Positions 3,127-28,049 of a DNA stretch of 64,000 bases are shown one piece after another (the stretch's first letter is position 1; each line of letters opens with the position of its first letter). The notes under the pieces are model-generated. The model had not been told where the DNA came from. It ran no database searches and saw only the letters and a program-made list of their open reading frames with translations. Position numbers and translations under genes: made by a program. The DNA is from an uncultured Desulfobacter sp. (GTDB lineage Bacteria > Desulfobacterota > Desulfobacteria > Desulfobacterales > Desulfobacteraceae): contig OY762069.1 of assembly GCA_963665095.1 (NCBI GenBank), positions 1,600,001-1,664,000 on the forward strand, written 5' to 3'.

Positions 3127-3156
3127 GTTCCCTGCAGAAAATTTTCTGCAGGGAAC
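3127..3156. terminator. Perfect 30-bp palindrome after the IS481-like gene (terminator-like hairpin or protein-binding site)
   Basis: GTTCCCTGCAGAAAA|TTTTCTGCAGGGAAC, 12 bp after the stop; no strong U-tract. Confidence 0.55.
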
Positions 3157-25414: not shown

Positions 25415-25523
25415 AGCTGCCGGCTAAACTTTGCTCATGTGGGACTTACACCCACGGGATAACAGTATCGAGTTTCATCCTCCTGTTCGGTTGAATCCCA
25501 ACGATTCGGATTTATCTGGACAC
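25415..25523 (-). mobile_element. 5' fragment of a group II intron RNA (domain I start)
   Basis: Minus strand reads GTGTCCAGATAAATCCGA...GTGGGTGTAAGTCCCAC...TAGCC: GUGYG-like start and GGGT-GNRA-GTCCC hairpin typical of domain I; truncated at the fliD stop. Confidence 0.55.
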
Positions 25524-25537
25524 GAGCAGCGTTTTGT

Positions 25538-26439
25538 GTGTGCCGGGCACGGCACGTGTTCTTAAAAGTGAGTCAAACGCAAACGATTTCAATGCGTTTG
25601 GCAAGTCTCAGACCCAGCCGGATGGAGGCCAAGGGTGTAGTGGTAGTGCAACGGGGGTACCGGTGACGGTGCTTCGGGAGGAAACCGCCTTGCTGAGGCA
25701 AGGTACCACGAAGGTACGGGATAACGTACAGGAATTGGATATAAGGCGCACATACCGGGACGAGCCTGCACAACAAGGTGAAGTCCTCTATCCATTACAG
25801 GGTATGTCCGTAAATCCGGCATTCACGTACTGAAAGACACGTGTTTACCCCGGGAGATCTCCCATGTGCCGGATTGGCTGAGGGCCGGGTAACTGGTCCT
25901 GACCGCATGGGAGAAGTCAGCAGAGGGCATAGTAACCGGTGGAAACGAGCCCTGCAAACCAGAGAGGACTCACCCCGGTGAAGGCCTGAACGGTGCCCGG
26001 TCCGAAGGGTCCGGGTAAATGATAACGACAAATAGGAGATGAGTACTTGTGAACAGATCGCCACAGCAGTTGGAACTGTTTCCAGCGTCACAAATTGCCG
26101 AACGTCTGGGAAACAATGCCCGGTTAATGGAGATGATTCTTGAACGTAACAACATTATCCTGGCATGGAAGCATGTCTGTGCAAACAAGGGTGCCCCAGG
26201 AGTGGATGGCATGAAAACCAGCCAGCTTGGCAGCTACCTTGCAAAGCACTGGCCTGAAATCAAACAAGACCTGCTGGAATGCAGGTACAAACCGCTGCCG
26301 GTTAAAAGGAAGGAAATCCCTAAACCGGATGAAAGATAATACGCCAATATTTAAGAGCCGGCGTGATGGTCGCAGGCGTCACTGTGACCACGGAAGAGGG
26401 AACTCCCCAGGGAGGCCCTCTTTCACCGTTGCTGTCCAA
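25538..26439 (+). mobile_element. Truncated group IIC intron (5' RNA domains plus broken RT)
   Basis: Starts GTGTGCCGGGCACGGC after TTGT; candidate EBS1 ACAA at 25773-25776; GAAGTCAGCAGAGGGCATAGTA and GAAGGCCTGAAC motifs; followed by an RT fragment; domains V/VI not seen. Confidence 0.85.
26049..26439 (+). pseudogene. ltrA: Group II intron reverse transcriptase/maturase remnant
   Basis: AWKHVCANKGAPGVDG...YKPLPVKRKEIPKPD, then in another frame KIIRQYLRAG...GTPQGGPLSPLLS (RT4); internal deletion, no YADD. Confidence 0.9.
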
Positions 26440-26445
26440 ACCGGA

Positions 26446-26992
26446 TGGCCACTTTAAAATCCCCCACCCGTGGCCGGGTCAAAATCCCCCGGCGACAGAA
26501 TATTAAGATCTAAGTTATGCTCTCAATATTTTTCATTTTCTCCTTTTTTCATCCCTCTTTATTATTGGGCAGCCGGGAGAGCCGCTGGGCGGCCTCTTTG
26601 AGCCGGTAACTCTTCCCTTCAAATTTCAGCAGATGACCATGGTGAAGCAACCGGTCCAGTATGGCCGATGATGCTGCATTGTCTTTTAGAAGCAGACCCC
26701 AGTCTTCAATGGATCGATTGGAAGTGATCACGGTACTTTTCCTTCTGGCATATCGGTTAATGATGACATCCAGCAGGTAGTCAGCTGCATCTTTAGGCAT
26801 TTTCTTCCGGAGGAACAAATCATCAATAACCAAAAGATCCGCCTGTGTAAACAGTTTGAAGACCTTTTTTCGATTTTGAATCTGCTCAGCCTCAACCATG
26901 TCTTCAAAAAACACATGGGCTTCCCGGTAAACCGTTTTCTGGAACAATTGGACGGACGCATGGGCGATGGTCTTGGCAATATGGCTCTTCCC
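26446..26992 (-). mobile_element. IS21-family element remnant A (terminal repeats plus 3' istB)
   Basis: Tandem sub-terminal repeats TGGCC..AAAATCCCCC at about 26446-26490, downstream of an istB fragment; exact end uncertain. Confidence 0.75.
26549..26992 (-). pseudogene. istB: IstB ATPase C-terminal fragment beginning inside Walker A
   Basis: GKSHIA...DLLVIDD...STVITSN...W...AILDRLLHH...GKSYRLKE; N-terminal part missing. Confidence 0.9.
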
Positions 26993-27019
26993 ATTATGTA
27001 AAGCTTTACATAATGGGAA
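26988..27019. repeat. Perfect 32-bp palindrome joining two istB fragments
   Basis: TTCCCATTATGTAAAG|CTTTACATAATGGGAA. Confidence 0.95.
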
Positions 27020-27425
27020 AACACATATTGCGACTGCTTTAGGTAACCAGGCCTGCCTGAAAAACCATACAGTTCTGTTCTCTTCTGCCATTGATATCGT
27101 CAACAATCTGATGGCAGCCCAGAAGGCGGGTCAGTTAAAGCAGGAACTGAGAAAATACCTCAAGCCAACTTTGCTGATCATGGATGAACTGGGCTACCTG
27201 CCTATTGACAAGATTGGGGCAGACCTGTTGTTCCAAATTATCAGTCAGCGCTATGAGCAAGGAGCCATCATAATAATCACAAACCGGGTGTTCAAAGATT
27301 GGCCGGAGATCTTCAACAATGACATGACATTAACATCAGCTTTGCTGGACAGGCTTCTTCACCACACCGAGCCTGTGGTCATTGAGGGTAAGAGTTTTAG
27401 AATGAAAGATGTGACGGAAGAATAA
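27015..27425 (+). pseudogene. istB: Second, distinct IstB C-terminal fragment beginning inside Walker A
   Basis: GKTHIATALG...LLIMDELGYLP...LLFQIISQRYE...ALLDRLLHH...GKSFR. Confidence 0.9.
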
Positions 27426-27524
27426 CAAAGCCGAGGCCGGTCTACATGCGTCTGGAGGCCGGCCCTTTAATCGCCTGCATTTTTAAACCGGGAGATTTAT
27501 GACATGTTCACGCCCCGCCTGACA
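27015..27524 (+). mobile_element. IS21-family element remnant B
   Basis: istB fragment followed by an IS21-like right end finishing ...CACGCCCCGCCTGACA; AT-rich DNA follows. Confidence 0.7.
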
Positions 27525-28049
27525 CCGTTTCAAGTTCCCTTCAACCTCATAAATAGCACTTTAAAATCAAAAACAAAAAAAACAGGCTATAGTGGAAAAT
27601 AAACATTCCCTGTTAAAAATTGCAACAGTCACTTTAATGCCCTGTTAAATGGGACTTAATATATTTGTTCATTTCCAACCTGCCTATCTTTATGAGCCTA
27701 ACTCTCATTGGGGACCCCAGACATATGAAAAAGAACGATGATTTATCAGTATCACAGAACACAAAGAGAATAAACAAGGAATGTGTGTGGTAAATAATAT
27801 TATAATATCAAAAACTTGCCACAGTTTATAGCTATGATATTGATAATTCTTTCATGCATGCCTCCAACGTTATTGATTTTTAGGAAAATGATACGGGGCT
27901 ATTCTATAACTTATCGGGAAAGGGTTTCAGGGGATTTGATGTAAAATATGGGGATTGATGTTTTGTGTTGGGGTTAGGCCCTGTTGTGTCTCTCAACGCT
28001 AAAAAAAGCTATGGGTTGGAAATACGGTTGGAATATATTTTTCCACTAT

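Follow-up and report, generated by a model that had tools for sequence, protein, structure and literature searches.

Two istB halves are joined by a perfect palindrome

The window analysed here is a stretch of 64,000 nucleotides, corresponding to positions 1600001-1664000 of the host genome G000, which is assembled as one contig of 6.9 Mb. A palindrome search of the window identified a perfect 32-bp palindrome at 26988-27019 with its centre at 27003/27004. It is flanked by the 3′ halves of two istB genes, both cut at the Gly codon of the Walker A motif and diverging from the centre. The half termed istB-A (26549-26992, minus strand) begins at Walker A Gly-Lys-Ser and matches the Pfam family IstB_IS21 (PF01695) over profile positions 104-236 with an E-value of 2.5e-27. 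On the other side, istB-B (27015-27425, plus strand) begins at Gly-Lys-Thr and matches the same family, again from position 104 (104-234, E 1.2e-45). Each half runs into the right end of its insertion sequence. The IS21-A right end (26441-26548, minus strand) adjoins an intron RT gene, and matches to IS21-A of relatives start at 26441. The IS21-B right end lies at 27426-27525 on the plus strand, and matches to other copies stop at 27524-27526. The istA transposase gene and the left end are absent from the locus, and the istB ATPase gene is present on both sides as a 3′ half only. Next to IS21-A, positions 25523-26439 (plus strand; Rfam RF02001 and RF01998) contain a group II intron reduced to its 5′ half, with the RT gene broken; this half is 96% identical to a copy at G000:2928826. 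The intron homology stops at 26439, and IS21-A had inserted into the RT gene.

The two istB proteins are 29.5% identical and their DNA can be aligned in short pieces only, so the junction is not a fold-back of one gene. In these respects the original prediction, which had been made from the sequence alone, was accurate: it had described fragments of two different istB genes that begin at the Walker A Gly, diverge and are joined by a perfect palindrome of 32 bp. It had also proposed a core of 22 bp foreign to istB, which has to be shortened. The outer A/T pair of that core belongs to istB, and the 6 bp on each side are the native hexamer of the respective gene. The istB-A hexamer (26988-26993, TGGGAA on the minus strand) is the same in intact IS21-A of the genomes G020 and G006; the intact copies in G020 are 98-99% identical to the window's half. 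The istB-B hexamer (27014-27019, TGGGAA on the plus strand) is present in G000 at every intact Walker A site of istB-B (15 of 15). Because each flanking hexamer is native to its own istB gene, the foreign DNA is limited to the 20 bp at 26994-27013. These consist of two 10-bp arms placed back to back with no spacer, identical to a module that adjoins the inverted repeats of RIT elements (recombinase in trio, ritA-ritB-ritC). The two hexamers are presumed to be crossover spacers.

A genome search of G000 found no second copy of istB-A. The istB-B half differs from the resident multicopy IS21 at 8 positions in 512 bp. Palindrome length alone is not unique, as G000 holds 24 perfect palindromes of at least 20 bp. 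The telling feature is the exact 20-mer, for which about 1000 metagenome matches are estimated and which adjoins a RIT repeat in two-thirds of the sites sampled.

The 20-bp palindrome is an end module of RIT elements

A 16-mer scan of genome contigs returned 119 loci, mostly chance matches, five of which carry the whole or nearly the whole palindrome. In metagenomes, the 20-mer scan covered 125 of the estimated 1000 stretches (8 of 64 parts) and yielded 123 distinct sites. A RIT repeat lies 6 bp from one arm in 82 of these and is lacking in the other 41 (81 and 42 under a stricter rule). Where a repeat side offered 700 bases of room, a RIT recombinase was found within 600 bases in 34 of 36 cases. 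The palindrome is therefore a native RIT end module and not a product of fused ends. Within the host's family, the 20-mer occurs within two mismatches in 18 of 161 genomes, compared to five for a reversed control.

A complete RIT has the order target 5′ half, hexamer, inverted repeat, ritABC, inverted repeat, hexamer, palindrome, hexamer, target 3′ half. At locus L036, three integrase genes lie between inverted repeats, followed by a hexamer, the same 20-mer, another hexamer and an istB-like half at GKS, and the far end carries a Walker A 5′ half. Elements with these termini thus exist, as had been predicted. The further idea that the palindrome represents two element ends fused by collapse does not hold. 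It is the intact 20-bp module of one RIT end, and none of the true terminal repeats remains at the locus. The locus in fact lacks what defines a RIT: the three adjacent tyrosine-recombinase genes, which are present in related loci such as L036, the terminal inverted repeats (28-34 bp) with paired arms, and a length of about 3.5 kb, of which only 20 foreign bases are found. Related elements are about 3.4-3.6 kb long.

The palindrome may stand at either end of the gene trio (24 versus 21 cases), and G020 has one element with both placements. Four RITs (L129, L136, L146 and L157) carry it at both ends, and the two gene halves that flank each of them face outward and belong to a single family. Among 27 complete elements with one palindrome, all three hexamers are the same in eight, two are equal in 14 and all differ in five. 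Mismatched spacers are tolerated, since only eight of the 27 have three equal hexamers. The symmetry of palindrome plus hexamers is perfect at the window locus and also in 32 of the 79 sites that bear an element; at most sites the hexamers are unequal, and imperfect palindromes persist uncorrected.

Several variants were met during the search. Nine loci (L285, L295, L297, L299, L300, L301, L144, L164 and L172) are miniature RITs of 279-394 bp, consisting of repeats and palindrome with no complete recombinase gene; several of them lie in PQGG codons of group II intron RT genes. Locus L283 (G023:2768185-2782359) contains four palindromes, with RIT copies inserted into ritC-like genes. It appears to be a RIT lineage that targets other RITs, and L292 (G016) looks like a solo scar of the ritC-like target of L283.

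Target choice follows the RitC lineage

The same 20-mer borders radC, IS66, ISL3, istA-type, IS4-like, ParA-type and istB genes; of the 149 flank pieces, only some could be named by Pfam. Walker A is met in the window's register on ten element-bearing and 11 solo sides, and on five more in a register offset by 3 bases. In a tree of 32 RitC proteins, the five elements at the istB codon (L036, L127, L135, L196 and L324) form a clade with a support of 100/100, and one member comes from the host's family (G085). For L196, whose 3′ flank is cut short, the register was assigned from the 5′ flank. An istB pair in the offset register and an element targeting AAA_14 fall elsewhere in the tree. Target choice therefore follows lineage. 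The scar shares the register of the clade, that is, one base and then the Walker A Gly codon as in the same five elements, together with a palindrome identical to the RIT terminal palindrome.

These data support the earlier proposal that the scar stems from a tyrosine-recombinase element of the RIT type, from a lineage that uses the Walker A codon of istB as its insertion site, and we regard an origin from such a Walker A-targeting RIT as very likely. The palindrome itself is not specific to IS21, since the 20-mer borders other genes in other RIT lineages.

Some further istB-related sites were noted. At L022 (4111-4136), a solo palindrome has an istB 3′ half on one side, and the other side resembles Walker A out of frame, which suggests that RITs recognize a DNA sequence rather than a type of gene. 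In G144, RITs with the exact 20-mer (L287-L289) lie beside IS21 genes at a different site, with a flank like Walker B on the opposite strand. The flank of L182 is an istB that ends at profile position 161. A plasmid search with the RIT of G085 gave one match of 113 bp.

Solo palindromes join targets of the same kind more often than by chance

At the 41 solo sites, the same motif class occurs on both sides in 16 cases (2.7 expected), Walker A on both sides in five (0.68 expected) and identical hexamers in 13 (0.33 expected), the hexamers differing in the remaining 28. None of 20000 shuffles reached the observed values; the motif labels were chosen after the data had been seen, and 45 of the 82 solo sides are unlabelled. 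Both sides are istB by Pfam at L171 and L195. G175 likewise contains a solo site between two istB halves, each with the hexamer TGGGAA; its shorter side falls below the Pfam cut-off. The same genome has an imperfect palindrome with the same istB half on one arm in an element-bearing contig and on the other arm in a solo istB/istB contig, which shows that either arm is used; the G175 assembly is fragmented into 1270 contigs. Where 1.5 kb was available on each side (12 solos), the locus lacked a RIT gene in 11 cases. The solo share of one-third may be inflated because assemblies break at repeated RITs.

What the host genome keeps and lacks

A scan of G000 for arm pairs detected no terminal repeat beside the palindrome and none with a TGGGAA spacer, and the RitA of the Walker A clade had no match in G000 at 1e-40. 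The assignment rests on relatives because the responsible RIT is not in G000. The reciprocal 5′ istB halves, for which the original prediction had proposed a search, did not turn up in G000. No orphan 5′ half of IS21-B was found there, all 15 other istB-B 5′ halves running on intact through the hexamer TGGGAA, and the IS21-A 5′ part had no match in G000 apart from a weak match to the end repeat. Neither the orphan 3′ half of the window's group II intron nor the reciprocal junction was found in this genome.

G000 does contain 27 matches to integrase domains and two recombinase trios, at 2.75 and 6.18 Mb. The former is a complete 3.1-kb RIT (G000:2749020-2752150) with a variant palindrome and three identical hexamers. 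It interrupts a gene which we take, from a motif, to be an IS91-type transposase. This element was considered as the maker of the scar and rejected, as its palindrome variant, hexamer and target differ and its RitC is distant. The second trio (G000:6182683-6185565) has no palindrome or arm pair by the rules used. In addition, a lone RIT-type repeat with hexamer (G000:1972027-1972126) ends a transposase-like frame at an SRG motif; the rest of this element appears to have been lost or displaced by another IS.

The scar lies at a synteny break. The genes that follow fliD in six of six relatives examined are located at G000:1216478, 409 kb away, and no mobile remnant was found at that site. The break is not credited to a RIT because G000 has many breakpoints relative to G021.

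The junction in sequencing runs

Most of the region was present in six runs from four studies. Two of them, X18 and X19, come from two studies and each yielded three overlapping pieces: istB-A with the palindrome, the 32-mer, and the palindrome with istB-B. These pieces carry the window's own alleles at depths similar to those of the flanks. The run data are all contigs, and none of these extends 31 bases beyond the palindrome on each side. The absence of a bridging contig is expected for graph contigs; it keeps the junction short of formal proof. X20 and X21 were left out of the independent support, as they may represent the window's source strain. X22 had no cover at 26866-26952, a gap from which nothing follows, X1 contained the intact IS21-B only, and 16 runs with a small share of the region were given no weight as evidence.

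Two observations from these runs concern the neighbourhood of the palindrome. In X19, a contig matching window 26991-27026 carries a third istB-like half attached to the palindrome plus the same hexamer; this is another insertion or scar at the same codon in that sample. In X18, the IS21-B half (window 27040-27300) is at single-copy depth, and none of its ends runs loose into an intact copy; this hints at a scar older than the IS21-B expansion seen in G000.

A proposed route to the scar and its alternatives

We read the locus as a RIT terminal palindrome left alone between two istB 3′ halves, the probable footprint of a Walker A-targeting RIT that joined both genes, with loss of the element and the other DNA between them (probability about 0.8). 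The full model of a two-arm deletion seems equally probable. In this model, each arm of the palindrome would pair with one of the terminal repeats, a 6-bp spacer lying between them, which would give the free element two crossover sites in mirror image. One of them would serve for integration, and the other, made up of inverted repeat, hexamer and arm, would stay intact in the chromosome. A RIT residing in one istB could then have brought its spare site to bear on another IS21, oriented divergently, at the Walker A hexamer. In this divergent geometry the hexamers are direct repeats, and the event is therefore a deletion, which would remove both istA genes, both istB 5′ halves, the 3′ half of the intron and the RIT. 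The absence from G000 of the IS21-A 5′ half, of any orphan IS21-B 5′ half and of the orphan intron 3′ half fits this geometry, and the native and identical hexamers of the window are supporting evidence. The chemistry of the junction would be tyrosine recombination by RitABC. Strict spacer homology does not fit, because unequal hexamers are frequent: all three agree in only 8 of 27 elements, and the two sides disagree at 28 of 41 solos. Against the route, each of its steps is read from sequence.

Insertion into two elements followed by collapse, close to the idea of the original prediction, is an alternative route within the same explanation and not a different origin. RIT copies in both istB genes would have recombined to give a RIT with two palindromes, whose excision left one. 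As a route this part of the prediction may be right; it is not required, since a single insertion can explain the structure too, and the outcome of both routes is identical. RITs carrying two palindromes do exist (the four described above), and in three of them, L129, L136 and L146, the inner hexamer of one end equals the target hexamer of the other, as excision would need. Such elements could, however, also arise by reinsertion into a solo scar, three or more events are required instead of two, and no remnant of either copy is present in G000. We modestly favour the one-step route, giving it slightly better than even weight, and consider two insertions possible but the less probable course. 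A different use of the RIT end would be replication through a hairpin-capped end, in a protelomerase-like manner, with subsequent repair onto the second istB. Hairpin intermediates have been proposed for RITs (in the part of PMC5737581 covered), and perfect symmetry of palindrome and hexamers, as at the window and in the 32 element-bearing sites, would be its natural outcome. This symmetry needs no copying, though, because both hexamers are native to their own genes, while most sites have unequal hexamers and imperfect palindromes persist uncorrected; a hairpin route thus appears improbable.

Still less probable, and about equally so, are an artefact and a resident recombinase. A chimera of assembly or library could have formed by HindIII ligation at the central AAGCTT or by a misjoin across the palindrome. 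Palindromes break graph assemblies, no contig has 31 bases on both sides, and in relatives fliD does not lie next to the tRNA/transaldolase block. Two genes cut at one and the same codon are not, however, what a chimera would give. The 20-mer occurs naturally as a RIT module, and these occurrences answer the earlier concern about the HindIII site. Both junction halves with the exact window alleles are found in X18 and X19, from two studies and at flank depth, and parallel istB/istB scars occur in L171, L195 and G175. XerCD of the host, or another resident recombinase, might instead have joined the two IS21 elements at a dif-like sequence, in line with the resemblance between the arm and a XerD site proposed in the original prediction and with the 27 integrase-domain matches in G000. 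A dif site consists of two different arms around a 6-bp spacer. At the locus, in contrast to dif, the two arms have the same sequence and meet directly, no spacer lying between them; moreover, the exact 20-mer travels with ritABC and the target motif follows the RitC lineage.

Returning to the proposed RIT-made deletion, a lone palindrome with a target on each side is the product predicted by the model with two crossover sites, and the locus indicates which substrates, which 6-bp spacers and which products to expect in RIT recombination. It is tempting to extend this to a general rule, although we hold it only tentatively, at a little under even odds: every integrated RIT may keep a second live crossover site, and RIT lineages may act as motif-specific welders of other mobile elements. 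If this is true, the Walker A lineage knocks out IS21 elements two at a time and deletes or fuses the DNA between them, and the lone palindromes, one-third of the sites sampled, form a searchable fossil record of RIT-driven rearrangement.

Relation to known elements

RIT trios of about 3.5 kb with insertions in radC and a transposase are described in PMC3414803, insertions in radC and IS66 in PMC2864759, and a classification of RitA-C in PMC8138268. According to the covered parts of these papers, RITs consist of three overlapping tyrosine-recombinase genes with terminal repeats and a palindrome at one end, as do the related loci found here (3.4-3.6 kb), which insert in radC and IS66 transposase genes as reported. 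The passages of PMC3414803 give an inverted repeat of 28-29 bp and an overlapping palindrome, and state that the ends are a poor match for the usual core/arm sites. The window locus differs from such elements in having no recombinase gene and no terminal repeat, and in that its palindrome is joined to targets on both sides. The passages covered in the RIT papers mention no solo palindromes, no istB Walker A target and no reading with two sites. The literature search, whose scope excluded the main RIT survey (Ricker 2013), likewise found no solo palindrome scars and no istB Walker A targeting. The locus is the footprint of a known element family in a form not found in the literature covered.

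RIT elements are widespread and little studied. As of 2023, RIT transposition had not been reproduced in the laboratory, according to the part of PMC10214605 covered. The same source reports 6-bp footprints for strand-biased circularizing elements (SE) and Tn554, which are multi-recombinase, target-specific elements that carry a 6-bp spacer from the donor to the new site; the unequal hexamers of RITs look similar. The gene sets differ, and no end palindrome that gives a second crossover site is described for SE and Tn554 in those passages.

With regard to the IS21 family, both flanks are true istB 3′ halves with right IS ends, and the elements are victims here, istA and the 5′ halves being gone. 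The junction lies inside Walker A and not at an IS end, and therefore IS21 transposition did not make it. Insertion sequences of the DDE type can cause adjacent deletions, in which an integrated element acts on another site of the same replicon, with loss of the intervening DNA. Here, by comparison, the second site is a conserved coding motif, tyrosine recombination would be the chemistry, the element is lost and 20 bp are left. The locus itself is inert. On the reading given above, a tag of 20 bp would point to earlier deletions or fusions of mobile elements, and one of the RIT lineages is a specialist for the helper genes of IS21.

Other palindromes were noted in the same genome. A perfect 30-bp palindrome at window 3127-3156 is unrelated to the RIT palindrome. 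A family of perfect palindromes of 58-70 bp with shared arms and variable centres occurs at G000:3493575, 3537660, 4170476, 4273391, 5938861 and 6297404, and a second family, of about 50 bp, at G000:636234, 2783539 and 5842172.
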